This document shows positions 11,705 to 57,622 of a DNA stretch of 64,000 nucleotides, in pieces. Made by a program: the position numbers and the translations under genes. Below the pieces are notes generated by a model. The model worked only from the letters and a program-made list of their open reading frames with translations, ran no database searches and was not told the DNA's origin. The DNA lies in the NCBI GenBank assembly GCA_023265515.1, contig JAHFSZ010000002.1, positions 8,358-72,357 of the forward strand, given 5' to 3'. How positions within the stretch are numbered: the stretch's first letter is position 1; each line of letters begins with the position of its first letter. This stretch comes from Verrucomicrobiota bacterium. GTDB lineage: Bacteria > Verrucomicrobiota > Verrucomicrobiia > JABWAM01 > JAHFSZ01.

Positions 11705-12175
11705 TCAGGTGAAGATTTTGCCGACTTCTTCGATGTCTTCCGCGTCGAACTGAAAGCCTGCCTCCTTGGAACGGGCGCGAAGCTTCGCCAGCAACTGGGC
11801 AAGCTGGCTGGTGGCGTTGACCGTGTAGAAACGGACCAGACCGACGGTCGTTTGTTCACCGAAGATCGTGATGAGGATGTTATTTTCGTCGATCGAGGTC
11901 ATGAAGATGTGCGCGTCCTTACCCTGATGATAGAGGGCGCTGAACTCGATCTCACCGATCCGCCGGGCAAGCTCCTTGGTCGCCGCGAACGAACCCGCCG
12001 CCAGCGCCGCCAGGATGGTGGTATCGGCAATGTTAAAGTCTCCTTGCTGGGAAATCACGGTACCGCCTTTGTCGATGACAACGGCGAGGTTCGCCTCCGA
12101 CTTCTGGAGGAAATCATTAAGAATCGCATCCAGCTGCTGGACGTCTTCCACCGACAATATTGGGATGGTCTCCAT
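11705..12175 (-). CDS. mglB: Roadblock/LC7-domain protein MglB (GTPase-activating partner of MglA)
   Basis: Roadblock fold sequence similar to myxobacterial MglB; lies directly downstream of mglA with a 12-nt gap. Confidence 0.8.
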   Translation of the reverse strand: METIPILSVEDVQQLDAILNDFLQKSEANLAVVIDKGGTVISQQGDFNIADTTILAALAAGSFAATKELARRIGEIEFSALYHQGKDAHIFMTSIDENNILITIFGEQTTVGLVRFYTVNATSQLAQLLAKLRARSKEAGFQFDAEDIEEVGKIFT

Positions 12176-12187
12176 GTTGCCTTCCCT

Positions 12188-12832
12188 TTACCTGACGGTC
12201 GACATCAGCACCGTCGTCTTCGATCGTTTGTCCGGTGAGTAGCTTTCCTTCGTGAATTTGTAAAGCAAGAGGCGCGAGATTGCGTTGAGCGTTGAAAAAA
12301 CATTTTCGCCCGTGGTCGCGCAGCCTTCGAACGACTGAACCTTCACCTTCCGGTTGTTCAAAAGGTATTCAAGGTAGTTGACTGGCGCGACATTGGGCAT
12401 GTCTCTCTTGTTATACTGCAGCACGTAAGGAATCTCATCAAGATTTATGTTCATCTTGGCCAGGTTCTCCTCCATGTTGCGAAAACTTTCGACGTTCTCC
12501 TCCATCTTGTCCCACTGCGAATCGGCGACAAAGACAATGCCATCGACACTGCGAAGAACCAGCTGGCGGGTCGCGTTGTAAATCACCTGGCCAGGAACCG
12601 TGTAAAGCTGGAACTTGGTCTTGAAGCCCTTGATGACAACAGCGTGCAGTGGAAGAAAATCAAAAAAAAGCGTCCGGTCGGCGGCCGTCGCCAGCGACAC
12701 CATGTCGCCACGGTTGTCAGGGGCGACCTGCGAGTGGATGTAGGTTAGGTTGGTGGTCTTGCCGCCGAGCGCGGGCCCATAGTAGACGATCTTGAATTGA
12801 ATTTCTTTATTGGCGTAATTGATGATTGACAT
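12188..12832 (-). CDS. mglA: Ras-like small GTPase MglA
   Basis: Near-colinear match to Myxococcus MglA: KIVYYGPxLxGKTTNL P-loop, RTLFFDFLPL switch region, FKTxFxLYTVPGQ and DGxVFVADSQ. Confidence 0.9.
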   Translation of the reverse strand: MSIINYANKEIQFKIVYYGPALGGKTTNLTYIHSQVAPDNRGDMVSLATAADRTLFFDFLPLHAVVIKGFKTKFQLYTVPGQVIYNATRQLVLRSVDGIVFVADSQWDKMEENVESFRNMEENLAKMNINLDEIPYVLQYNKRDMPNVAPVNYLEYLLNNRKVKVQSFEGCATTGENVFSTLNAISRLLLYKFTKESYSPDKRSKTTVLMSTVR

Positions 12833-12844
12833 AACTTTATCCGC

Positions 12845-14713
12845 TCATGCCGCGCTGAGATTCTGACGGCTCAGTTCTTCCGCCAAACGTTCGACTCGCT
12901 TGAAAAACCCGCGGTTGATCTTTTCGCCGGAATGCCATAACAGCAGAAACACACCTGGTGCCCGAAAGAAGCTCACGAGGCGTTTTTCCAAAAGGATGGT
13001 AACGCGCGAAACTTTACCAGCGCCGGCGGGCTCAATTCCACGTGCCAGATGCCGGAAAATCTGTGGGATAAACGCGCTGATCATCTGCTTATCGAATCCT
13101 TCGGGGGGTCTGCCTGCGAGCACAAGTCCATCCTCCGCCACCATCATCCCGGCGACAACTTCGAACTTGGCGATCGCGGTATCAATGATTTCCTGTACTT
13201 TTAAAGTACGCTGATCTGTCAAAGTCAGCAACCGATTAAGTGCACTGACGTTCACGGCCCCGGCGGGCTCGGGCATGCTGGACAGCCGCAGAAGGCTTTT
13301 CCGGCGGACGCCGACATCCTTCAGGTCCTGCAATGACAGGGTTTTCACGCGATCCCGCTGGTCGAGGATTTTCCGCGCGACTTGGAAGGACACGCCGTTC
13401 AATTCCGTGAATTCATGCGGGTGAAAGCGGTTCACCCGCTGCATCAGAACGGCTTCGTCAAAATTTTCGGCCGTTGGGCAGATTTCCAGGTCTTTTGGCT
13501 CCGGAGACCTTTGCTGCTCCGCGGGCACATCCGCGGCTTCCTCCGGTTTGATTTCGGCGGCCGCCGGTTGGGTCTTCGCAGTCGCCGCAACAGACGCCAC
13601 TCCCGCCCCCGACTTTTCTGTAAAGAGATTGGCAGGAATGCTCGAGTCATCCGGCAGCTTCACCTCCGGGGAGCCCTCAACCTTGATCATATCGGCGGGG
13701 ATTTGCGCAACGATCCGGTCCAGCGGCAGTACCACTTCGGCGGATTGGTTGACGGAATTGACCGCATTGACCATGTGCGCAGGGAAAAAAGGATGAAGCG
13801 CGGAATACTCAATCGCGATCCGGCCCGAGGCAAGCTTCGGCAACACAAGCTCGATCGGAAGCTCGATGACCTGTTCACCGGCCTCTTCGAGGCATTTCTG
13901 GCGCGGGATGGCGAGGAGATCTTCGGGCAGTCGCTTGAGAAGGCTTATCAGGAAAAGCCTCACACTGGTCACCGGGCCTGAAGGGGCTTCGAGCTGCTCC
14001 GCACCAGCAGGCGGTTCAACCTCAGCAGGAGAATCGACGCGCACGGAAAGTTTGGGCGGCTCAATCGGCGCCGGCACTCCCGCCTGCGGAGGCGGCTGGG
14101 GAATCTGCGGCTCAGGCCGTGGCGGTTCCAGGATTTTGATTTCAGCGGGTGTTCCACTCTTGCCTTCCGAAAACGGCGACTCGACAAAATTGGGATCGAT
14201 TTCCTGCCGGACCTGGCCCTCAACGATCAAAAGTTCCGGTGGAATACTCGCCACCACGTCCGGCAACGGCATTCGGATCGCTTCCTTTCTGTTGACGCCG
14301 GCCCGGGTGATCTCGCCACCGATTTGGTCCAGGATGAGCTCAAGCGGAACCGTAATCCGTCCGCTGGTGAGTTGCGGCAAAAGAACTCCCGCCTCGAAGG
14401 TGAATGTTTCAGGAATCTGCGCCACTGAGAGCTTGTTGGGATCGACCAGGTTACCGGGAAGGCTCTGGATGATCGGCGCCGCGGCAATTTGGATCGTCAC
14501 GCCGCTTGAACTTACGGCACTCCCCGGGGATCCCTGCGAAGCTGCGGAATCGCCGCCTGCAACATCCATTCCCTTGGGTCGGAAGACCTGCGTCTGGCTC
14601 ATTCGAAGCGCCTCGTGAGGATCGACCCCGGGCGGCAGAGGCTTCTTCTGCATCCCCGAAGGCCGGATGACCGGAATCGGCATCTTGGGTCGGGTTTTTG
14701 GAAAATCCGCCAT
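12845..14713 (-). CDS. Pro-rich multidomain protein: 3 internal ~35-aa repeats + ComEA-like helix-hairpin-helix + C-terminal Roadblock/LC7 domain
   Basis: Repeated (I/V)xLPxELxLPxLxSGRI motif at roughly residues 100, 290 and 330. HhH segment (FTELNGVSFQVARKIL...LQDLKDVGVRRK). The C-terminal ~110 aa aligns to the MglB-type roadblock fold (VVAGMMVAEDGLVLAG...RVTILLEKRLVSFF). No confident named orthologue recognised. Confidence 0.6.
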   Translation of the reverse strand: MADFPKTRPKMPIPVIRPSGMQKKPLPPGVDPHEALRMSQTQVFRPKGMDVAGGDSAASQGSPGSAVSSSGVTIQIAAAPIIQSLPGNLVDPNKLSVAQIPETFTFEAGVLLPQLTSGRITVPLELILDQIGGEITRAGVNRKEAIRMPLPDVVASIPPELLIVEGQVRQEIDPNFVESPFSEGKSGTPAEIKILEPPRPEPQIPQPPPQAGVPAPIEPPKLSVRVDSPAEVEPPAGAEQLEAPSGPVTSVRLFLISLLKRLPEDLLAIPRQKCLEEAGEQVIELPIELVLPKLASGRIAIEYSALHPFFPAHMVNAVNSVNQSAEVVLPLDRIVAQIPADMIKVEGSPEVKLPDDSSIPANLFTEKSGAGVASVAATAKTQPAAAEIKPEEAADVPAEQQRSPEPKDLEICPTAENFDEAVLMQRVNRFHPHEFTELNGVSFQVARKILDQRDRVKTLSLQDLKDVGVRRKSLLRLSSMPEPAGAVNVSALNRLLTLTDQRTLKVQEIIDTAIAKFEVVAGMMVAEDGLVLAGRPPEGFDKQMISAFIPQIFRHLARGIEPAGAGKVSRVTILLEKRLVSFFRAPGVFLLLWHSGEKINRGFFKRVERLAEELSRQNLSAA

Positions 14714-14725
14714 GACTCGACTCTT

Positions 14726-16429
14726 TTAGAGATCCACCATCGTGATTGCAAGAGCCTCTTCAAGCGTGCTGAGTCCCTGCCTGGCCTTGTCGATGGCGTT
14801 GCGCCTGAGTGTCTGCATCCCCTGCTGAAGCGCGACCGTTTTGATTTCATTGGCCGCCCTGCGCTGGATCACCAAGAGGCGGATCTCCTCCGTGATCGGG
14901 ATCAGCTCGAGCACGGCAAGGCGCCCGGAATAGCCTGTATTTTTGCAGTAATCGCAGCCATGGCCCTTGAAAAATTTGGTTGCCCTCGCCTCTTCCTGCG
15001 ACATTTCCAATTGCTCCATCAGCTTTTGCGGCACTTGGACGGGCTCCTTGCAGTGGCCGCAGATTCGCCGCATCAGGCGCTGTGCGCAAGAGAGCGTCAC
15101 ACTGGAGGCGACGAGGAACGGCTCGATTTGCATGTCGATGAGCCGCGTGATGGCGCCTGCCGCGTCGTTCGTATGCAGGGTGCTCAATACCTGGTGACCG
15201 GTGAGCGCCGCTTTGACGGCGATGTCCGCAGTCTCGTTGTCCCGGATCTCACCGATCATCACGATATCCGGATCCTGGCGAAGGATGGAACGCAGAGCAG
15301 CCGCGAAGTCGAAACCAATCTCAGGTTTTACCTGGACCTGGTTGATCCCGTTGAGCTGGTACTCGACCGGGTCCTCAACAGTGACAATGTTGTAGATCGG
15401 CTGATTGAGGTGGGCCAGCGCCGAATAAAGAGTCGTGGTCTTGCCCGATCCCGTGGGCCCGGTCACGAGCATCATTCCGTGAGGCGCCTCCAGCGCCTCC
15501 ATGAATTTTTTCAGGCTGTCCGAATCCATCCCGATCGAGTCGATGCTTGGCGCAAGCCCGCTCTTGTCGAGAAGACGAAGCACGACTTTTTCTCCATGGA
15601 TCGTTGGCAGGAACGAGGCGCGAAAATCGAATTCCTTGCCGGACATGCTGATGCGGATGCGGCCATCCTGAGGCAGACGACGTTCAGAGATGTTGAGTTT
15701 CGCCATGATCTTGAGGCGGGAAATGAGCGCATTTTGCATCGACTTGGGCGGCGGCGGATAGTCGTAGAGGCTGCCGTCGACGCGGTAGCGGAGCTTCAGA
15801 TACTTTTCATAGCATTCCATGTGGATGTCGCTTGCCTTGTCCTTCACCGAGGTGGCCAGCATCATATTGGCAATTTTGATGACCGGCGCCGCTTCGGGGT
15901 TCTCTTCGGAGACATCGGCTTTTTCATCCTCGGAGATCTCGATGCTTGTATCGTCGGCCTCCGCTTCGGCCAGGAGGTCCTGCATACCGGCGGCCGATGC
16001 CGCTTCCGCGATCGCCATGGCATCCTGAACCGCCTTTTCGGTCGAAATCATCGGAACAATTTCCATCCTGGTGATCTGTCTGAGTTCGTCGAGGGCCAGG
16101 ACATTGAGAGGATCGGCCATCGCCACGTAGAGCATGTTGCCGAGCCGCGCGATGGGGATCAGCTGGTGATTCTTGGCGATATCCTTGGGAACCAGATCGA
16201 GGAGTTCCTTTGAAATCTTCATCCGCGAAAGATTGACCGGCGGGGTGCCGAGGCAACGACCCATGCTGATCATCATGTCCTGTTCGGTGACGTATTTCTT
16301 GTCGAGAAGGAGTTTGAGAAGGCGTCCGCCCTGGGTCTTTTGGATTTCAAGAATCTCCTCGAGCTGTGAGCTCTCAAGGAGGCCATCCTCGATCAGGATA
16401 TCCGCAATTCTTTCACCGAATGGTTTCAT
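14726..16429 (-). CDS. PilB/GspE-family secretion/pilus assembly ATPase
   Basis: N-terminal T2SSE_N-like domain, Walker A GPTGSGKTT, Asp/His boxes and a tetracysteine motif CGHCK...CDYCKNTG. Confidence 0.9.
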   Translation of the reverse strand: MKPFGERIADILIEDGLLESSQLEEILEIQKTQGGRLLKLLLDKKYVTEQDMMISMGRCLGTPPVNLSRMKISKELLDLVPKDIAKNHQLIPIARLGNMLYVAMADPLNVLALDELRQITRMEIVPMISTEKAVQDAMAIAEAASAAGMQDLLAEAEADDTSIEISEDEKADVSEENPEAAPVIKIANMMLATSVKDKASDIHMECYEKYLKLRYRVDGSLYDYPPPPKSMQNALISRLKIMAKLNISERRLPQDGRIRISMSGKEFDFRASFLPTIHGEKVVLRLLDKSGLAPSIDSIGMDSDSLKKFMEALEAPHGMMLVTGPTGSGKTTTLYSALAHLNQPIYNIVTVEDPVEYQLNGINQVQVKPEIGFDFAAALRSILRQDPDIVMIGEIRDNETADIAVKAALTGHQVLSTLHTNDAAGAITRLIDMQIEPFLVASSVTLSCAQRLMRRICGHCKEPVQVPQKLMEQLEMSQEEARATKFFKGHGCDYCKNTGYSGRLAVLELIPITEEIRLLVIQRRAANEIKTVALQQGMQTLRRNAIDKARQGLSTLEEALAITMVDL

Positions 16430-17259
16430 GACAGGAGCCGAAACACGTCTTGTATCTTGAGCCGCAGGTCATTGGGGTGCGTGATGTACCACTGGACGTG
16501 GCACTGGGCGGCCGACTCGATCTGATGCCTGGCGTGACGGTCCATTGGGTTGACCGTCGCGGCGAAAATGGTGCGGCTGATCTTATCGAACGGAAGAACC
16601 ATCCGCGAAACGCAAAGCGCAGGATCCACCAGCTCGGCCCGCCGCGCATCCACGTCGTACGTATCCATCGGCATGAACGGAATCTTGGCGGTCTGTGATA
16701 GAAAGAGCAGCGTGTTTTCAATGGCGGAGATGCCGCGGTCCGCCAGCACTTCGATGACGGTCGGCGCAGGGGTGTTGGGGTGCGATTCTGCAATTCTGGA
16801 GGCAAAATCGCTCAGGATTGAGGAGCGGTTTTTCTCCGGGAAAAGACCGTGCTGGATCATGAAATCGATCAGGATTTCGTTCGGATTTTCCTCCTCGACA
16901 GCCTGCGTATCCACCGGGGCAGGCGCGGGCGCGGGCTGAACTTCGCCTACGGCGGCGTAGCCGGGCATCTTGCTTTCAAGTTCGCCGAGAGCTGCCAGGG
17001 CCTCCCCATCATCCGGTGAGCGTTGCAGGACGCCTTCATACTCGAGGATCGCAGAGGAGATTTGTCCCAGGCGGACGTAAATTTTGGCGATCTTCTTCGA
17101 GGCTTCAATGGCGTCTTTTTCCCGACCGAGCTTGGTGTAGGCCTCCTTAAGGATTTCCATCGACTGATAGTCGTCCGGATCCGCCGCGGTGATCACTTCA
17201 AACATCTGCACCGTCTCAAGAAGCTTGGGGTCTTCCTGGATTTTTTTGTGGGAAGCCAT
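16426..17259 (-). CDS. TPR-repeat protein with C-terminal GspE-N-terminal (T2SSE_N/MshEN-like) domain
   Basis: TPR-like helical repeats in the N-terminal half; the C-terminal ~110 aa resemble the N-terminal domain of GspE/MshE ATPases. Overlaps the ATPase gene by 4 nt; the start is probably M at 17259 rather than the track start at 17322. Confidence 0.6.
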   Translation of the reverse strand: MASHKKIQEDPKLLETVQMFEVITAADPDDYQSMEILKEAYTKLGREKDAIEASKKIAKIYVRLGQISSAILEYEGVLQRSPDDGEALAALGELESKMPGYAAVGEVQPAPAPAPVDTQAVEEENPNEILIDFMIQHGLFPEKNRSSILSDFASRIAESHPNTPAPTVIEVLADRGISAIENTLLFLSQTAKIPFMPMDTYDVDARRAELVDPALCVSRMVLPFDKISRTIFAATVNPMDRHARHQIESAAQCHVQWYITHPNDLRLKIQDVFRLLS

Positions 17260-17635
17260 GGAACCGACCTGGGAGCGCCTTGAGGCAACAGGCCGCCATG
17301 AAGTTCGCTCCGGCCGTTCCAATATGAGTTCATTTCAATCAATAGGCAAGGACAGTTTGAGCTTCCCGCCTGCGTAAGTCGTACAGAATCAACGAATAAG
17401 AAATTTGACTCATGGTGGCAGGTTTTTGGCAAAGCCCTGTTTTCGAGGTGCGAAAGCCGGGATCGATGAGGCCGCTTTCGTCATTCCCCCGCCCTGCCCG
17501 AATGCTCCGGAGGACATCCCGCCGAGGGCAACTCGCTCAAATCTGCATCCCCAAATAAGGGCCCCTTGGTTTCATCCAAGCAGGGGGGGCAAAAAGTTTC
17601 TTAACATCCCGGCGGAAGTCGATTAAGATACGAGC

Positions 17636-27390: not shown

Positions 27391-29295
27391 TCACCGCTGG
27401 CTGGATTCCTTCGGGGCCCTCCAAAGCTGGCGATAAATGTCGTACGTCTTGCGAGGTTCGCGAAGAAACGGGCTGGATCTGCCCTCCCCTTGACCAGCGA
27501 TTCCGAGCCATTCCTCCTGACTCCAACCGTCAGGGAAGGCCATCTCAATGGTTGGATCGGTGTCGTGAATACCATCCCGGTCCTTGACCGAAGTATCCTT
27601 CCACCACTCATCGAGCCATTCGAAGACAATGCCGCCGATGGACGTTCCCGTTCCCGGCTTCCCCGTCCGGTTGAACACGATATCCTGCCAATTGTTCCGG
27701 TGATACTCGGCCTGTGCCTCTTCGTCGACCCCCCTGCCGGTTCGATAGGCGTCACAGCCGAACTCCACGATTAAAACGGGCCGGTCGAAAATAGCCTTGG
27801 CTGCTTCCCACAAGGCACCGAAGCCTTCCTTGCCCGCATATTCATTGATGCCAATAAAATCCAGCTCGGGCGCCTTCTGGGCGTAAACATCGAGCAGGTT
27901 GAGGCCCATGTTGCCGACTCCCACGGGGTGATCCGGGTCGAGCTTGTGAATCAACGCCGCCGCTTCGTTCAACAGACTCGCATACGCTTCGGGATAAACC
28001 GCGGCGTTGGTTCGGCTGGCGTTCACTCCCGAAAAATTCGCCGGCATGTTATTTTCATTCCCCAAGACATACGCGAGAAGCCACGGTTCATTCTTGGACT
28101 GCTCGACCATGCTTCGGACCGCTTCAAGCATCTTGTTGCGCTGCTGTGGATCCCGGTAGTCGGTACCCTGTTCCCAGCTCGCGCCCGAATGAACCGTGTA
28201 AGCGCCCAGCGGCTCATTGAGGATGCCATAGATTCCGAAGTTCTGGCGCATTTCCCGCAGCAACGGGAGATTGAGCGGATGATCGGTGAACATGCGAATC
28301 GCATTGCAGCCCATCTCCTGGAGCAATTTGAAGTCCCCCACCACCGGCTCGTCGGCGTCCTGCACACCGTTTTTGTTTTTATCGATCCACGTTTCGTAGG
28401 CGACGTCGTTCTTGCCATTTTTGTTCTCGTCGGCGTCCATCCAGTTCCAATCCTTGATATGAAAACCCACCTTGGTCGGCAGGTACGAGACCCCTTGGAC
28501 GAAAAACGGCTTGCCGTCCATTTGCAGCCCCCACTGTCCGTTGTCGTATTGGACACAGGCGACCTTTCCGCCGCGCCGCGAGACGATCTTCAAGCGGCTT
28601 AGATCGGCCCGGCTGCGTTCGCGGTCCTGCGGCGTGTACTGGATAAAGCGGCCCGGTGTGACAGCAACATCGTTGCGCGTTGGGTCGCCGCCGACATTCG
28701 CATGCACCTTCACCAGCGCATCAACCAGTTTCAGATTCATCTCCGGGTGGCTTTGCGTCAGACGGATGATCGAGCCCCACGCCACCGGGGCAACGGGCCA
28801 GGTATAGACTCGCTTCCGGCTCCAGCAAAAAGACTTTGGATAGAGGATCATCGACGCCCGGTAAGCTTTGAGTGCATGGTCGTAGTGGCCCGCCTCCTCG
28901 AGGGCCCTGCCCGTGAAAAGCAGGCGCAATCCCGGATCTTCGGAACACATGGCCCATGCATAAAAATCCGCTTGGGAGTCGCCGGACTGGACATAGTTCC
29001 ATGGGGCCTTGGTGAGCCTCTCCTTCGCCTTGTACTCCTTGAATGCAGGATCCTTCCAGAGGGACCGATTCGGATCGACCCCCTCGCCTGAGGCTTTGGC
29101 AAGCCCCTCTCGGTCCTTGATCATGTACTGATAATCGAAGGTGCCGGCATTTTTGAATTCGCCATATTTCTCGTAGTCGACCTCACGCTCGGATCCGGGA
29201 TCGAAGAGTTTGAACGGTTCGGCCTGAGCGATCGGTGCCGGTACGAAAAATGCCAGGATAGCGAGGGTGAAAAACCCTGAGGATCGGGAAAACAT
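27391..29295 (-). CDS. secreted glycoside hydrolase, clan GH-A TIM barrel (GH5-like), with ~250-aa N-terminal accessory domain
   Basis: Signal peptide. Putative acid/base VLGNENN and nucleophile IVEFG motifs at spacing typical of clan GH-A. Paralogous to the next gene. Confidence 0.7.
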   Translation of the reverse strand: MFSRSSGFFTLAILAFFVPAPIAQAEPFKLFDPGSEREVDYEKYGEFKNAGTFDYQYMIKDREGLAKASGEGVDPNRSLWKDPAFKEYKAKERLTKAPWNYVQSGDSQADFYAWAMCSEDPGLRLLFTGRALEEAGHYDHALKAYRASMILYPKSFCWSRKRVYTWPVAPVAWGSIIRLTQSHPEMNLKLVDALVKVHANVGGDPTRNDVAVTPGRFIQYTPQDRERSRADLSRLKIVSRRGGKVACVQYDNGQWGLQMDGKPFFVQGVSYLPTKVGFHIKDWNWMDADENKNGKNDVAYETWIDKNKNGVQDADEPVVGDFKLLQEMGCNAIRMFTDHPLNLPLLREMRQNFGIYGILNEPLGAYTVHSGASWEQGTDYRDPQQRNKMLEAVRSMVEQSKNEPWLLAYVLGNENNMPANFSGVNASRTNAAVYPEAYASLLNEAAALIHKLDPDHPVGVGNMGLNLLDVYAQKAPELDFIGINEYAGKEGFGALWEAAKAIFDRPVLIVEFGCDAYRTGRGVDEEAQAEYHRNNWQDIVFNRTGKPGTGTSIGGIVFEWLDEWWKDTSVKDRDGIHDTDPTIEMAFPDGWSQEEWLGIAGQGEGRSSPFLREPRKTYDIYRQLWRAPKESSQR

Positions 29296-29369: not shown

Positions 29370-31319
29370 TTATTTTACGAGACCCGGTTTTTCCGGCTGT
29401 TCTCCAGCATTCCCCTTGTTGGCCGGAAAAGGCAGGGGCTTTCGGTTCCACAACTCCTTGAGCATCCCATAGGCAACTCGCAACTCGCGAAGAAAGGGGC
29501 TCGATGTGCCGTCGCCCTGTGACGTGATACCGAGCCATTCCTCCTGGCTCCAGCCGTCGGGAAAGGCCGCCTCGATGGTTGGCTCGCGGTTCTGCCGGTT
29601 GAGTGAGTCTCCCGTCGTGTCCTTCCACCATTCATCGGCCCATTCGAAGACAACGCCCCCGATCGAGTTGCCCACCCCGGGTTCACCGGCGGAGTTGTAA
29701 GCAATGTCTTCCCAGCAATGGCGTATGTAGTTGGCCTGCGTGGTCTCGTCGGGCCCCTTGCCCGTCCAGTAGGCGTCGCATCCGAACTCGGTGACGACCA
29801 CTGGCCGGTCGAACGTCGTATGCGCCTCGAACCAGAGCGATCCGAAGCCGCCCATGGCCGGATAGGCGTTGACGCCGATAAAATCGATCTCGGGCGCAAA
29901 CTTGCCATAGACGTCGGCCAGGCCCAGACCCATGTTACCGATCCCAGCCGGATGGTTCGGATCAATCTGATGGATCATCCTGGCAGCCTCATTGAGGAAC
30001 CTGGCATATGCCTCGGGGTAGACGCTCGCATTGGTCCGCGTCGCGTTCACACCCGAATAATCGGCAGTCATGTTGTTTTCATTTCCAAGGATGTAGCAGA
30101 GCAGCCACGGCTCATCCTTGCATCTTTCGACGGTGGCGCGGAGCGCAGCAAGCATACTTTTGCATTGCTCCGGATCGCGGTAATCCGTTCCTTTGTCCCA
30201 ACTTGCGCCGGAGTTGATCGTGTAGGCGCCGATCGGGTTCATCAGCATGACGTAGATCCCATAGTCTTGATGCATTTCGCGCAGCAGCTCGATGTTCAAC
30301 GGAAGGTTGTCGAGCACACGGATCGCATTGCAACCCATCTCCTGGAGCAGCTTGAAGTCTCCGACCGCGGGCTCATCAGGATCGTGGGTGCCATTGCGGT
30401 TGGCGTCGACCCATGTTTCGTAAGCGACGTCGTTTTTGCCGTTTTTGTTTTCGTCGGCCTCCATCCAGTTCCAGTTGTAATCCCGGCCCACCTTGGTCGG
30501 CGTGTAGGTCATTCCGCGGATGAAAAACGGCTTGCCTTCCACCTGAAGGCCCCACTGCCCGTTGTCGTATTTTACACAGCTGACCTTCGCCCCGCGCCGC
30601 TCGACAACTGGAAGCAAACTCACGTCACGGCGGGCTTCATTTCGCTGCTGGGCGCTGTATGGAACGAATTTCCCGGGAGTGACCGCCACTTTGTTCTTTG
30701 TGGGATCGCCGCCAATCGTGGTCTGGATCCGGATCAAGGCGCCGTCCAGCTTCAGGCCAAGTTCCGGGTGAAGGCGCGTCAGGTTGATGATTGAGTTCCA
30801 GGCTGCAGGCCCGATCAGCCAGGTCCATGTTTTTTTTCGGTTCCAGACATACGTATTCGGATGGAGGACCATGGCCGCCCGATACGCCTTGAGCGCGTGG
30901 ATGTAATGGCCACCCTCTTCGAGCGCTCTTGCGGTGAAGAAAAGTCTCAGGCCCGGATCGAGCTTCGGCGCCGTCGCCCAGACAAAAAAGTCAGCCTGCG
31001 GATCGCCAGAATTGATGTGCGACCAAATGTCGCCCTTGAGTCTTCCCTCCTTCTCCAGCCTCGCATAGCCAGGGTCGCGCTTCACGCTGAGGTTGGGATC
31101 GATTCCCTCCCCGGACGCCCTTGCGAGGCCCTCCTGGGAAATGATCGTGTATTGATAATCGAAGGTTCCGATACCCTTAAATGAACCATATTTGGAGTAA
31201 TCGATGGTTGGATCGCTTCCCGGATCGGCCAGCGGGAAAGCGGGGTTCCAGGCCCGGACGACCAGTGGAACCGCGCAAAATCCCACAAGGAGCAGAATGC
31301 GTTTGAAAATCATCATCAT
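29370..31319 (-). CDS. secreted glycoside hydrolase, clan GH-A (tandem paralog)
   Basis: Colinear with 27391-29295 (ILGNENN, VTEFG), with the same N-terminal domain. Confidence 0.7.
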   Translation of the reverse strand: MMMIFKRILLLVGFCAVPLVVRAWNPAFPLADPGSDPTIDYSKYGSFKGIGTFDYQYTIISQEGLARASGEGIDPNLSVKRDPGYARLEKEGRLKGDIWSHINSGDPQADFFVWATAPKLDPGLRLFFTARALEEGGHYIHALKAYRAAMVLHPNTYVWNRKKTWTWLIGPAAWNSIINLTRLHPELGLKLDGALIRIQTTIGGDPTKNKVAVTPGKFVPYSAQQRNEARRDVSLLPVVERRGAKVSCVKYDNGQWGLQVEGKPFFIRGMTYTPTKVGRDYNWNWMEADENKNGKNDVAYETWVDANRNGTHDPDEPAVGDFKLLQEMGCNAIRVLDNLPLNIELLREMHQDYGIYVMLMNPIGAYTINSGASWDKGTDYRDPEQCKSMLAALRATVERCKDEPWLLCYILGNENNMTADYSGVNATRTNASVYPEAYARFLNEAARMIHQIDPNHPAGIGNMGLGLADVYGKFAPEIDFIGVNAYPAMGGFGSLWFEAHTTFDRPVVVTEFGCDAYWTGKGPDETTQANYIRHCWEDIAYNSAGEPGVGNSIGGVVFEWADEWWKDTTGDSLNRQNREPTIEAAFPDGWSQEEWLGITSQGDGTSSPFLRELRVAYGMLKELWNRKPLPFPANKGNAGEQPEKPGLVK

Positions 31320-54202: not shown

Positions 54203-57200
54203 TTAATGAGGCGGCCCTTCGTAGGTCATCAGGTAGTCGCGTACCGCCTCGATTTGGGTTTGGACATTGCCATCCAAAACGTTCGTGAACGGACTGGGTC
54301 CCTGGTCCGGCCAGTTGGGCGGCATGAGGCCGAAGCCTGGCGTCACGGGGTTCGGTCTGGATGTGTCGCCTGGGTTATTGAGCCATGGGATGATCCCGTC
54401 GGGCCGCATCCGGTCCTTCACCATCATGAGATTCGGCGCCGCCTTGCCATTCTCCCGCGCCTTTTCCGGGGTCACGACCGCGTGGCAGGAAAGGCACTTG
54501 AAATCGATCAACAGCCTTTCGCCGGCCGGAACGAGAGCCTGTGAGGGATGAAATCCCGCCATGGTCGCCTTCTCAAATGGATACGGCTGCTTGTCGAGCA
54601 GGGCGAAGTACCGGATCAACGCATTCATCTGCGTATCGGTGAGATTGAATGTCGGCATCCGGGCGTTTAACCAGTAACGATACTTATGGTCCCCCGGCTG
54701 CTTGATGAAATGATAAAGCCAGTCGGGGCGGACCCTGATGCCGACGCCGGCGAGGATTGGCGGCCGCATGAACGGCTGCTCGATCTTGGCATAGATTGCC
54801 CCGCCCCGCCCCTCGACGACATGACAGCCGGCGCAGTTCAGTTCCTTGATCAACCAGCGGCCATTCTCGATTTGCCATTGGCTGTCGTCCAGATGGGCGG
54901 CCGAGGCGGGAGTCGGTTTTTCCGACGTCAGTGACATGATCGCCGTCATAATCAGGTCAATTTGTTCTTCGTTGAAATTGTACTGCGGCATCTTCAGGTA
55001 CTCCTGCGGGCGCTTCGCGGAAATCCGGTCGAAGGAGCGCGGGTTGGACAACTTCTGGTGGAGGAACCCGTAGTGGTTCTTCTCTTGCATGTGGATGAAT
55101 CCAAAATCGAACTGTGTTACCTTTTTGCCCGCCCAGTCCGAGAGCTCGATGCTCACCGGCTTTTCCGTCTCCAGGCCCCGGATCTGATGACAGCTGTAGC
55201 ATCCGTATCGGCGGACCAGTTTTTCGCCGGCAAACTGATTCTTCTCATCAGCCGACATCCCCTTGCATTTCTCCTGCGCCTCGTTCAGCGGCATTTTCGT
55301 CTGCAGGTAGTCCACCACCATGTCGTCGACGACCCCGGGTTTGACATCAGGAATCTTCTTTTCGTCGAACACATGGTTCTTATCCTGCAAGAGATAGCTC
55401 GCGATGTCGGCCGCGTCGCTGTCGGAGAGTCTGAGATTCGGCATCCGGGTCGCCTCGTGGTATTGCGACGGGTCCTTCAGCCACGCATAGAGCCAGCCCG
55501 GCGAGTATTTGCTGCCGCCGCCGCTCAGCATCGGTCCGCGGGTCCGGAACATCCTGTCCTTGGCGGGAATCTGCTCCCAAGTCTCCTTCTCGACATGGCA
55601 GCCATAACAGCCGACCTCAGCGACGAGTTTTTTGCCGTTTTCCGGGTTGCCCGGCGGCGGAGCCGGTGAATCGACCGTCGCGTCAGCCCGGTGAAAGACA
55701 AACTCCGTGATCGCATGGATTTCGGCGATATTGCGGTCCGCCCAGTCGAAGGTCTGTTTGCCGTCCTGGCTGGTGTACTTCATTCCCGCCCGGTTGTTGT
55801 CGAGCCCCCAAAACTGGGGCATGTAGGTGTTCGCACGAAACTCCTTCGGGTTGAGCAGCCACTTCTCCATCCACTCCTGGGTCACTTTGGCCGGGATCTT
55901 GGCCAGCGTCGGCGCGGCACGATCGGTCGGGACGCGGATTGGCACGGTGATGTCGCGGCCGATTTTCAGATCCTCGGGTTTGGTCAGGCCATTGGACGCG
56001 AGGATCATCTGCGGCTCGGAGCTGTAGCGGTTGGCGATCGCCTGCAAGGTCTCTCCGGCCTCCACCTTGTGCTTGGCGGTGGTCTCAAGCTGTTGAATGC
56101 GATGGCAGGCGTAGCATCCTGCCTGTTCGACGAGCCGGATCGCCTGGTTGATCTTATCGCCCGTGTTTGGCCCGTTCGTTCCCTCCGGCAAGGGCTTCTG
56201 CGGAATCCACGTCACATTCAGGTGGCACTTCAAGCAGGAGGACTCAACGAACTCCTTCGGGCGCATCGGGTCCTCCTTATGGTGTATCGGATGCCAGCCA
56301 TATTGGTCATGCCAGATGCGCGCCTGCGTCGAAGACTCCTTCTTGGCCTTTTCCACATTTTCGACCGGCGGCAGCGATGCCAGGATCCGGCTCACTTGCC
56401 CGAGATCCTGCTTCACGCGCACCAGATCGTCCTTCTTGACCGCCAGATCCGGTTGCGACGTGTCCTTGCCGGAAATTTCACGAGCGAGCTTGTCGCGCCG
56501 CTCCTCGAGCGATGTTTTCCAGGAACCGAGCGCGTCGTGCGAGGACTGGTAATTCTGCTCGAGTCCCGAAAAGGTCGACGGCTCCATCCAGCGCTTCAAA
56601 CCGTCGCAATAGACGTACTCCTTTTCGACGGGATAAAATTGCGGTGTGTGAGCCGCGCTCATAAAACCGACGCCCCGATCCCATCCGAGGTGGCAGGTGG
56701 AACATCCGAATTTCTGGACTGGATGCGGCGAATCCGGACTGAGGAAAACGTCGAGCCGCGGGTGCGAGCGCCATGGATGCGGAAGCCCGGAGTATCGGAA
56801 TCCCTGCTGGCCGGGCTCGAGGCCGTCCTTTTTCTCGATGAAGGCATGGCATGTCGAGCAGCGGTCCATCCGCGACACCTGCGTGAAATTAAGGTCGTAT
56901 TTCTGGTCTTCGGTGATCACCTGCTGGATCCTCGTGAATGGCGCCGCGAACTCCAGCATCGGAATCCGGTCGACGAGGTTGAGCCTGACATTGGTCAGCT
57001 TGTCCAATTTGCTTCCGGCCAGATCGCGTTCCTTCGTCAGTTTCCTGACTTGCTTGTCGAGATCGATTTCCGCTTCCTTTGCCTTCGCCAGCTGCGCATC
57101 AGCCGTGTCGTGGTTGGTCTTGGCGGCGTCCATCACCGCCTTCTTCTGGAGAAGCATTTCGCGCTGGCGCTTGATCTGCTCCATTTTTTTGGAGAGGAGC

Positions 57201-57622
57201 GGATCATCGGGGTTCAACTCCACCATTGCGTCATACTGCGAAACCAGCTGGTCAAGGTTGGATTTTTGCGCCTGGTATTCGCTGGTGGCAACACCCAGGG
57301 CCGTTTTAAGAAGAGACTCCGTGACCGCAAGTTGAGCAACGATTCCGTGCTCCTCATCCAGCTTCTGCCGGGTCTCCCTGAGCTGGAGCAGAAGCTGATC
57401 GATGTTCGCTTCCTGGGCCTTGGTTTCGGCGCCCTTGACGTCAAGGATCAGCTTGAGCTTCTCAAACTCCTGCGACTTGTTCTGATAGGTTTTCCATTCG
57501 CGCGTGTAATCGCGGTAAACCATCCAGACTACGGAGCCGAGCAATAGGAGAGATGTGACGACAAAAATGACGTTCAGCCGGGGTATGTTGTATTCGTGGA
57601 CGGTCTCGGGGACGTTGCGCAT
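54203..57622 (-). CDS. membrane-anchored octaheme c-type cytochrome (N-terminal TM + ~200-aa coiled coil + multiple class-I cytochrome c modules)
   Basis: Eight CxxCH motifs (CSTCH x2, CLKCH, CYACH, CYGCH, CYSCH, CAGCH, CLSCH), several followed by class-I-like Met-Pro ligand loops. Directly downstream of the Rieske/cyt b genes. Confidence 0.8.
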   Translation of the reverse strand: MRNVPETVHEYNIPRLNVIFVVTSLLLLGSVVWMVYRDYTREWKTYQNKSQEFEKLKLILDVKGAETKAQEANIDQLLLQLRETRQKLDEEHGIVAQLAVTESLLKTALGVATSEYQAQKSNLDQLVSQYDAMVELNPDDPLLSKKMEQIKRQREMLLQKKAVMDAAKTNHDTADAQLAKAKEAEIDLDKQVRKLTKERDLAGSKLDKLTNVRLNLVDRIPMLEFAAPFTRIQQVITEDQKYDLNFTQVSRMDRCSTCHAFIEKKDGLEPGQQGFRYSGLPHPWRSHPRLDVFLSPDSPHPVQKFGCSTCHLGWDRGVGFMSAAHTPQFYPVEKEYVYCDGLKRWMEPSTFSGLEQNYQSSHDALGSWKTSLEERRDKLAREISGKDTSQPDLAVKKDDLVRVKQDLGQVSRILASLPPVENVEKAKKESSTQARIWHDQYGWHPIHHKEDPMRPKEFVESSCLKCHLNVTWIPQKPLPEGTNGPNTGDKINQAIRLVEQAGCYACHRIQQLETTAKHKVEAGETLQAIANRYSSEPQMILASNGLTKPEDLKIGRDITVPIRVPTDRAAPTLAKIPAKVTQEWMEKWLLNPKEFRANTYMPQFWGLDNNRAGMKYTSQDGKQTFDWADRNIAEIHAITEFVFHRADATVDSPAPPPGNPENGKKLVAEVGCYGCHVEKETWEQIPAKDRMFRTRGPMLSGGGSKYSPGWLYAWLKDPSQYHEATRMPNLRLSDSDAADIASYLLQDKNHVFDEKKIPDVKPGVVDDMVVDYLQTKMPLNEAQEKCKGMSADEKNQFAGEKLVRRYGCYSCHQIRGLETEKPVSIELSDWAGKKVTQFDFGFIHMQEKNHYGFLHQKLSNPRSFDRISAKRPQEYLKMPQYNFNEEQIDLIMTAIMSLTSEKPTPASAAHLDDSQWQIENGRWLIKELNCAGCHVVEGRGGAIYAKIEQPFMRPPILAGVGIRVRPDWLYHFIKQPGDHKYRYWLNARMPTFNLTDTQMNALIRYFALLDKQPYPFEKATMAGFHPSQALVPAGERLLIDFKCLSCHAVVTPEKARENGKAAPNLMMVKDRMRPDGIIPWLNNPGDTSRPNPVTPGFGLMPPNWPDQGPSPFTNVLDGNVQTQIEAVRDYLMTYEGPPH

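Follow-up and report, generated by a model that had tools for sequence, protein, structure and literature searches.

What does a protein with long proline-rich stretches do when its gene sits between the gene for a type IV pilus motor and the gene for a polarity GTPase? This question is raised by a 622-residue open reading frame (ORF), here called X, in a stretch of 64,000 nucleotides of Verrucomicrobiota DNA (contig JAHFSZ010000002.1; we call the whole stretch the window). To our knowledge, Myxococcus is the one case in which the way from MglA/MglB to the pilus motor is understood; there it runs through SgmX, FrzS and SopA. We infer from the domain anatomy of X, from its pattern of conservation and from its gene linkage that it may well be an adaptor or regulator which ties the extension motor of the type IV pilus to the MglA/MglB switch. 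It is a reading of the function that we favor with moderate confidence.

Anatomy of X and its family

Taken alone, X has no Pfam match at E ≤ 1, no meaningful NCBIfam match and no sequence match in the PDB, so the domain calls rest on family profiles and predicted structure. They give, from the N-terminus to the C-terminus, a motif region, a first copy of a module we call M (M1), a linker, a second copy (M2), another linker, a degenerate double helix-hairpin-helix domain, written (HhH)2, a connector helix and a Roadblock domain (Table 1).

A word-indexed search returned eight close homologues with 65-100% identity to X, all of them metagenomic, one of which is labelled 'Roadblock/LC7/MglB family' by JGI. 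The eight were aligned (A1, the clade alignment) and used in an exhaustive HMMER search of 1.84 billion cluster representatives (50% identity), where 372 proteins passed E ≤ 1e-3 and 22 passed E ≤ 1e-30. The word-indexed search returned only the same eight relatives when given a full-length diverse alignment, probably because Pro-rich words swamped it; given a C-terminal alignment it returned seven family members together with true ComEA proteins. We dissected the top 157 family sequences with our own domain hidden Markov models (HMMs) and a ComEA-only HhH HMM. The architectures are one M with HhH and Roadblock (46 proteins), two M with HhH and Roadblock (36), two M with Roadblock (31) and one M with Roadblock (18), along with a few M-M-M proteins that lack a Roadblock. 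X matches the family HMMs at E 9.5e-24 for M1, 2.7e-30 for M2 and 5.5e-44 for the Roadblock, and it has the two features by which we define the family, at least one M and a C-terminal Roadblock. Judged by these profile matches, X belongs to a widespread unnamed family of the form M(1-3)-[HhH]-Roadblock.

The initial annotation had read an HhH domain and a Roadblock domain together from the letters of the DNA, and this architecture stands. A Pfam scan of 39 sequences (38 distant homologues and the window fragment) found HHH_3 in 30 of them (best E 4.8e-21) and Robl_LC7 in 30 (best E 1.1e-8); the N-terminal modules were unmatched, and NCBIfam recognized only the ComEA HhH region of the family. 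It had also not recognized the combination as a described family, and we agree. We found no curated Pfam or NCBIfam model for the whole protein or for the N-terminal module, and, in the library searched, no paper on the combination of Roadblock, HhH and MglA. As for genomes, a first GTDB scan with the clade alignment detected no relative, and with two conserved peptide patterns X's own clade was found in none of 185,579 GTDB species representatives. The window probably comes from a PVC-group lineage that is not represented there. A scan with an alignment of the Verrucomicrobiota subfamily did find relatives, and the nearest genomes of the family are Verrucomicrobiota metagenome-assembled genomes (MAGs). 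One GTDB match is binned as Terracidiphilus; it is probably a mis-binned 3-kb contig.

Conservation among the close homologues follows the domains. Identity to X is 79-93% in the Roadblock domain, the highest in the protein, 73-100% in the connector, 51-86% in the HhH region and 38-81% in the two M modules (the 38% belongs to an N-terminally truncated sequence, with 64-81% otherwise), and 20-69% in the Pro/Ala/Glu-rich linkers. Because conservation is domain-wise, X has real folded or binding segments under purifying selection and is not a drifting low-complexity ORF. The initial annotation had named such drift, together with confinement to a single genome, as grounds for refutation. A functionless or spurious frame would agree with the lack of direct database matches, with the Pro-rich stretches and with a GC content at third codon positions of 0.65, slightly lower than in the neighboring genes. 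It cannot account for orthologues with domain-specific conservation, for 372 family representatives, for confident AlphaFold2 (AF2) models of two separate regions or for a gene order kept over about 45 loci. We consider the idea already refuted by conservation and synteny, and give it next to no probability.

Residues about 72-185 and about 249-369 of X, the two M modules, are homologous to one another (hhalign probability 96.5%, E 9e-10), each copy being about 115-125 residues long. Each has four beta-alpha units of the form h-x-h-P-h-x-x-h-h-x-x-h-P followed by an IPxPFxE-like tail. The four units are weakly similar among themselves (P 2e-4 to 4e-3 over 16-18 columns), and this is what had been noticed in the initial annotation as three copies of an (I/V)xLPxELxLPxLxSGRI motif in a Pro/Ala/Glu-rich linker. 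That description has to be replaced. 'SGRI' is found only twice, at residues 117-120 and 296-299, the real repeat is the pair of folded M modules, and the Pro-rich stretches, such as residues 186-248, lie between modules. From their sequence these stretches are best read as disordered or flexible linkers between the M copies; the first of them has large insertions in P0008.

Searched with an iterated HMM, 150 of 158 sequences proved to contain M, with one to three copies each and 242 in all. Their consensus reads hxLPLxxhLxxLPxxLL ... VxLPxxxLLPQLxxGRV-xhPLxxLhxxLPxxLL ... VxLPLxxVVxxLPPxLL ... IPxPFxE, and we recognize M by its PQLxxGRV core, four hxLPLxxhhxxLP-like units and IPxPFxE tail. 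We ran AF2 on X residues 240-372 with an alignment of 44 sequences (A5). The M2 model has a mean predicted local distance difference test score (pLDDT) of 82.8, with 88-95 over about 90 residues (model residues 11-100). Its core is four strand-helix units, and the IPxPF tail is less ordered, with pLDDT around 60. Foldseek found no structural neighbor of this model in the PDB (best E 2.5) and the A5 profile matched no PDB sequence. M is a conserved domain with a confident predicted structure and with neither a curated model nor a solved structural relative, and it well merits a Pfam entry of its own and an experimental structure. The tails of M may be extra linear motifs. Linear binding motifs are possibly also held by the N-terminal 50 residues of X, which are 74-82% identical within the clade, against 14-52% for the next 20. 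M also occurs outside the MglA context since there are giants with three M and no Roadblock. Five of these (P0050, P0063, P0069, P0072 and P0104) are 1010-1342 residues long and have no Pfam domain; P0050 (L038 2452-6480) adjoins a PG_binding_1 protein on a contig of 6.7 kb.

For the C-terminus we ran AF2 on X residues 405-622 with alignment A4, which holds the C-terminal part of 17 sequences from the diverse family. The mean pLDDT is 83, with values of 91-94 for the greater part of the C-terminal 120 residues, and the predicted topology is alpha-beta-beta-alpha-beta-beta-beta-alpha. The top Foldseek matches in the PDB are all Roadblock proteins, at probability 1.0 and a template modeling (TM) score of 0.73-0.83 on the target. 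They are the Asgard Roadblock3 9jue, MglB of M. xanthus (6hjm, 6h5b, 6izw) and of T. thermophilus (3t1s, 1j3w), and LAMTOR/MP1-p14. The A4 profile also matches the Robl_LC7 chains 7f8f (2.7e-8) and 7f8m (5.9e-6). The model has the fold that defines Roadblock/LC7 (PF03259); X lacks the sequence match to that entry, which 30 of the 39 sequences in the Pfam scan do have. With pLDDT >90 and such matches to MglB and LAMTOR we believe the Roadblock call made from the letters alone is right, and that the last 117 or so residues of X are, as modeled, a Roadblock/LC7 domain.

Calling it a giant MglB- or MglC-like protein is another matter, and by sequence this earlier suggestion falls. When the family Roadblock was compared with 36 MglB proteins (35 from related loci and that of the window), hhalign gave a probability of 7% and E 0.005, with the register correct. 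X is unmatched by the MglB-specific NCBIfam models, and we detect no closer similarity to MglB than to other Roadblock proteins. We tried X as an MglB paralogue and rejected it; hhalign of the clade alignment, which is shallow, gave nothing usable against a pair of MglB sequences, and the comparison with deeper alignments is still weak.

These results bear on the argument that X mainly regulates MglA as an enzyme would and is not a passive adaptor. It could be an alternative GTPase-activating protein (GAP), a co-GAP like RomY, or an exchange factor for guanine nucleotides (GEF) or GEF scaffold like RomR/RomX, or like Ragulator, which is built from Roadblocks and acts on Rag GTPases, with M serving to target it to the pole or the motor. 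MglB is an established GAP and Ragulator an established GEF. A Roadblock fold that includes the C-terminal helix, the fact that this is the most conserved part of X, and the linkage to mglA-mglB in both of the gene arrangements described below all speak for such a role. The missing match to MglB models and the weak alignment with the operon's MglB family speak against it, as does the bona fide MglB already encoded two genes downstream. The enzymatic argument fits the same anatomy and is compatible with an adaptor, so the two are not exclusive; as the main activity of X we think it possible and rather unlikely.

The segment between M2 and the Roadblock is where the initial annotation saw a DNA-binding HhH of the ComEA type. 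The homology is upheld and the implied DNA binding is not. In A4, X aligns column for column with the canonical ComEA-type (HhH)2 of distant members. The A4 profile matches ComEA structures at 9.2e-17 (8dss) and 5.5e-16 (8dfk), as well as Tex and EEPD1, and TIGR01259 (comEA) is reached at about 1e-11 by the family HhH. The eight-sequence clade alignment of the HhH against a ComEA-only alignment gives an hhalign probability of 91.7% and E 8e-7; the HhH of X alone reaches E 0.4 against the ComEA-only HMM. AF2 places five helices at X residues 420-478. We take the middle segment of X, on these alignments, to be homologous to ComEA-type (HhH)2. The connector that follows it has two leucines, L91 and L92 in A4 numbering, that are invariant or nearly so across the family, and the model gives it a helix (H85-91).

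The G-h-G hairpin motif of such domains contacts DNA phosphates. X has neither of the two, since hairpin 1 reads G-V-S in place of G-h-G and the second, which follows the loss of one residue, has G-V-R. In 8 of 9 clade sequences the first hairpin carries G-[VI]-S or G-I-P (P0004 has G-I-G), and in 9 of 9 the second carries G-[VIL]-R with the one-residue deletion. Outside the clade both GxG hairpins are intact in 38 of the 87 family members with an HhH. The domain is missing from about a third of the family, including the X of locus L036 (P0057), which has the same operon. The HhH looks ancestral to the family and eroded in the clade of X, where, because of that erosion, it is probably a structural or protein-binding spacer and not a DNA clamp. 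With both GxG hairpins lost in the clade, DNA binding by the HhH of X is doubtful and is not to be assumed.

One could still argue that X is a ComEA-type DNA binder, used for DNA uptake and transformation through the type IV pilus or as a tether of the pilus or MglA to the nucleoid. The family HhH is clearly of the ComEA type by all three of the comparisons above (HHH_3, TIGR01259 and the ComEA structures), many members outside the clade keep both hairpins, and JGI gives 'competence ComEA-like' names to truncated family members. For X we judge this improbable. Besides the degenerate hairpins, the deletion, the E of 0.4 and the third of the family that does without the domain, the constant partners are MglA and MglB rather than competence genes. 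X also has neither the export signal nor the membrane anchor of a ComEA competence protein. We found no transmembrane segment, signal peptide or signal-like hydrophobic stretch in it; the maximum 19-residue Kyte-Doolittle average is 1.35 and that stretch sits in the Roadblock domain. Without a hydrophobic segment that fits a signal peptide or a transmembrane helix, X should be cytoplasmic and soluble. Eroded hairpins and a cytoplasmic location together disfavor a ComEA-like role for the clade; family members with a canonical HhH may have one.

The JGI names deserve a comment of their own. The entries called 'competence ComEA-like helix-hairpin-helix protein' (210-290 aa; P0158-P0164) are members of the X family. 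The one that was checked, P0164 (L033 1852-3681 (+)), is a truncated gene call that omits M, and the open frame upstream holds an M domain. The short 'ComEA-like' labels are probably artefacts or misnomers, and truncated gene models of this family labelled 'ComEA-like competence protein' are a source of misannotation.

Gene neighborhood in the window and beyond

X is the third of five tightly packed genes on the minus strand (Table 1). The gene for a TPR-MshEN protein overlaps the start of pilB by 4 nt, and the junctions pilB/X, X/mglA and mglA/mglB are 12 nt each. Because the gaps are this short, or are overlaps, the five genes are most simply one operon. A scan for promoters and terminators gave a signal no better than shuffles. 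The MglA-type protein has the motifs GPALGGKT (P-loop), DRTLFFDF, PGQ and NKRD, and the NF052242 score of the MglB-type protein falls under the equivalog cut-off. Within the window we found neither further type IV pilus genes nor another member of the X family.

Two of the neighbors are worth a closer look. Residues 7-52 of the window's PilB match NF053729, an MshE-related motif that binds c-di-GMP (E 1.1e-9, 37.9 bits, against a cut-off of 38), so the PilB motor of this cluster may be c-di-GMP-responsive. The TPR-MshEN protein has no ATPase domain and is conserved throughout the related loci. Whatever binds the N-terminus of PilB may have in it a decoy or a partner.

The order TPR-MshEN, PilB, X, MglA, MglB is shared with two close homologues (locus L001 and the P0007 contig). 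Of 29 loci from Verrucomicrobiota MAGs, all those long enough to show it have this order too; identity to the window's proteins in these loci is 25-33% for X, about 57% for PilB and 73-81% for MglA. It appears again in an unrelated metagenome lineage (L036/L037) whose X has no HhH. A second arrangement has mglB-mglA on one strand, a divergent X, and then a response regulator of 560-605 residues with the domains (MshEN)-REC-PATAN. It is found in 12 metagenome loci (L032, L033, L035, L039-L047), many of them truncated; mglA is present in 7, the REC-PATAN gene in 10 and both in 5. An N-terminal MshEN is found in 2 of the 3 REC-PATAN proteins tested, at E 5.3e-7 and at a weak 1.5e-3 that is below the Pfam cut-off. 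In Synechocystis, PATAN domains bind PilC as well as the N-terminal region of PilB (bioRxiv 10.1101/2021.06.11.447907), and genes for PATAN proteins are known to have MglA/MglB genes as neighbors (PMC4316618). A literature search on PATAN with Roadblock returned only irrelevant matches.

Gene order is kept in this way across about 45 loci. In the window and in related loci the family stands beside mglA-mglB and a gene for an MshEN protein, and an MshEN-bearing protein (PilB, TPR-MshEN or MshEN-REC-PATAN) is encoded beside X in nearly every locus examined. Since both arrangements share them, the constants of the family are MglA, MglB, X and an MshEN-bearing, PilB-related partner. The tie to the MglA/MglB polarity module and PilB that the initial annotation had guessed at is strong on this evidence, and the role it suggested, a scaffold or GAP/GEF accessory, would suit such a neighborhood.

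Table 1. X, its segments and the other genes of the cluster, with positions in the window.
Feature	Positions	Strand	Basis
TPR protein with C-terminal MshEN, 298 aa, first in cluster	16426..17322	(-)	PF05157 5.1e-11, TPR_14 5.5e-5
PilB-type type IV pilus extension ATPase, 567 aa, MshEN N-terminal domain, upstream of X	14726..16429	(-)	TIGR02538 4e-195, PF00437 1.6e-135, PF05157 5.5e-18
X, whole ORF, 622 aa + stop, ATG start	12845..14713	(-)	ORF list; coordinates are exactly one ORF
X N-terminal region, residues 1-50 (KTRPKMPIPVIRPSG..KKPLPPGVDP.EALRMSQTQVFRPK), Pro- and Lys-rich	14564..14713	(-)	kept within clade
X M1, residues 72-185, LPQLTSGRI at 112-120, tail IDPNFVESPFSE	14159..14500	(-)	hhalign against M2; module HMM
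X linker 1, residues 186-248, 29% Pro, length and sequence both vary	13970..14158	(-)	20-69% identity
X M2, residues 249-369, LPKLASGRI at 291-299, tail IPANLFTEK	13607..13969	(-)	AF2; module HMM
X linker 2, residues 370-404, Ala/Pro/Glu-rich, variable	13502..13606	(-)	20-54% identity
X degenerate ComEA-type (HhH)2, predicted helices at residues 420-478	13265..13501	(-)	A4, AF2, hhalign
X connector, residues 484-505, near-invariant LNRLL helix (489-495)	13199..13264	(-)	A4, AF2
X Roadblock/LC7 (predicted), residues 506-622, C-terminal helix 601-621	12848..13198	(-)	AF2, Foldseek, family profile
MglA-type small GTPase, 214 aa, downstream of X	12188..12832	(-)	Arf/Ras Pfam matches; sequence motifs
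MglB-type Roadblock protein, 156 aa, last in cluster	11705..12175	(-)	PF03259 5.9e-17; NF052242 (MglB) 3.8e-18

A proposed link between switch and motor

Roadblock domains work in homo- or heterodimers, whose partners are small GTPases or further Roadblock dimers. In our model X would join MglA and MglB as a third component of the small-GTPase polarity modules controlling type IV pili. Its C-terminal Roadblock would dock on MglA, on the MglB dimer or on both, by analogy with MglB-MglA, MglC-MglB and Ragulator, and the flexible Pro-rich linkers would let both M domains reach the pilus extension motor. The likeliest targets of M would be the MshEN-type N-terminal domains of PilB and its companions, because an MshEN protein is encoded beside X almost everywhere. 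X could then bring PilB to the site of MglA-GTP or hold it there, or it could report back to the switch.

Several observations weigh against this model. We detect no greater similarity of the X Roadblock to MglB than to generic Robl_LC7, so heterodimerization of X with MglB would be only an analogy. The pairing of M with MshEN rests on guilt by association; counts of M copies do not follow those of MshEN proteins (L036 has two MshEN for a single M), and one of the three REC-PATAN neighbors tested has no MshEN match. Some family members (M-M-M, 860-1340 aa) have no Roadblock at all, in a context that is different and uninformative. Finally, the canonical HhH with both hairpins in 38 of 87 members implies an ancestral role in binding nucleic acid, which an adaptor does not explain.

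The coupling model can also be taken further. M would then be an undescribed fold that specifically recognizes MshEN/GspE-N1-type domains, the family would be the long-sought direct physical link from MglA/MglB to PilB outside the Myxococcales, and the canonical HhH would add coupling to the nucleoid. This extension is tentative, and we lean against it as a whole. In M. xanthus MglA recruits PilB through SgmX/SopA, and even there no direct contact with PilB was found (PMC11580455). If M does recognize MshEN, the five-gene cluster would be a self-contained and portable 'pilus polarity cassette'.

It is important to separate what is already known from what is new. The Roadblock domain and the HhH were known, and MglC is a precedent for an MglA module with two Roadblock proteins; the M domain, the fusion architecture and the fixed place between pilB and mglA are new. 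In the Verrucomicrobiota the family provides a candidate coupling protein within one operon with PilB, MglA and MglB, and elsewhere a link to PATAN regulators. Because the candidate is hard-wired into a PilB/MglA/MglB operon, the question of how MglA/MglB reaches PilB can be put to a direct test with a few purified proteins.

Two further observations in the window have nothing to do with this argument. Genes at 27391-29295 (-) and 29370-31319 (-) are adjacent paralogues encoding about 640 residues each, with signal-peptide-like N-termini and a weak match to the Glyco_hydro_2 TIM barrel; the pair looks like a tandem duplication unrelated to X. A protein of 1139 residues at 54203-57622 (-) has the unusual combination of cytochrome c domains and LysM, and its gene adjoins those for cytochrome b and COX1.

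Comparison with known systems

MglB (1J3W/3T1S, 6HJM/6H5B) is the obvious comparison. It shares with X the alpha-beta-beta-alpha-beta-beta-beta fold, a C-terminal helix (predicted in X) and an operon with MglA. However, MglB is a single domain of about 130-160 residues, whereas X has 622 residues with a Roadblock only at the C-terminus, and the marginal hhalign result and the missing NCBIfam match described above set the sequences apart. MglC, a Roadblock paralogue of MglB in M. xanthus, binds MglB and RomR (PMC4719450). As a second Roadblock protein beside MglA/MglB it is the best conceptual precedent for a Roadblock partner that is not a GAP; unlike X it is small and single-domain with no fusion to M or HhH, a comparison we make from its description. 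LAMTOR/Ragulator and the Asgard Roadblock proteins (5Y39, 6B9X, 9JUE, 7F8M) have the same fold, and the X family profile matches the archaeal Robl_LC7 chains 7f8f/7f8m better than it matches the operon's own MglB, but these are small proteins of one domain each, subunits of complexes that regulate GTPases in archaea and eukaryotes.

ComEA (HHH_3, PF12836; 8DSS, 8DFK, 2DUY) has a (HhH)2 DNA-binding domain homologous to the one in the middle of the X family. In X this domain is internal to a cytoplasmic protein and the GxG hairpins of the clade are degenerate, unlike those of ComEA.

The last likeness is one of proposed function. SgmX, SopA and FrzS are M. xanthus effectors of MglA through which PilB reaches the leading pole (PMC11580455, PMC7519303), and this coupling of MglA to polar PilB is the role we propose for X. 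SopA, compared by its description, is required for PilB at the pole and, like X, has folded domains of no known structural kin, two of them with a disordered linker between (PMC11580455), which makes it an intriguing functional analogue; its homologues are reported in the Myxococcales only (PMC11580455, PMC7519303). SgmX is a TPR protein, and the TPR-MshEN product of the first gene in our cluster recalls this effector. Yet neither SgmX nor SopA has a Roadblock or an HhH, and neither is encoded with mglA-mglB, as the X family is.

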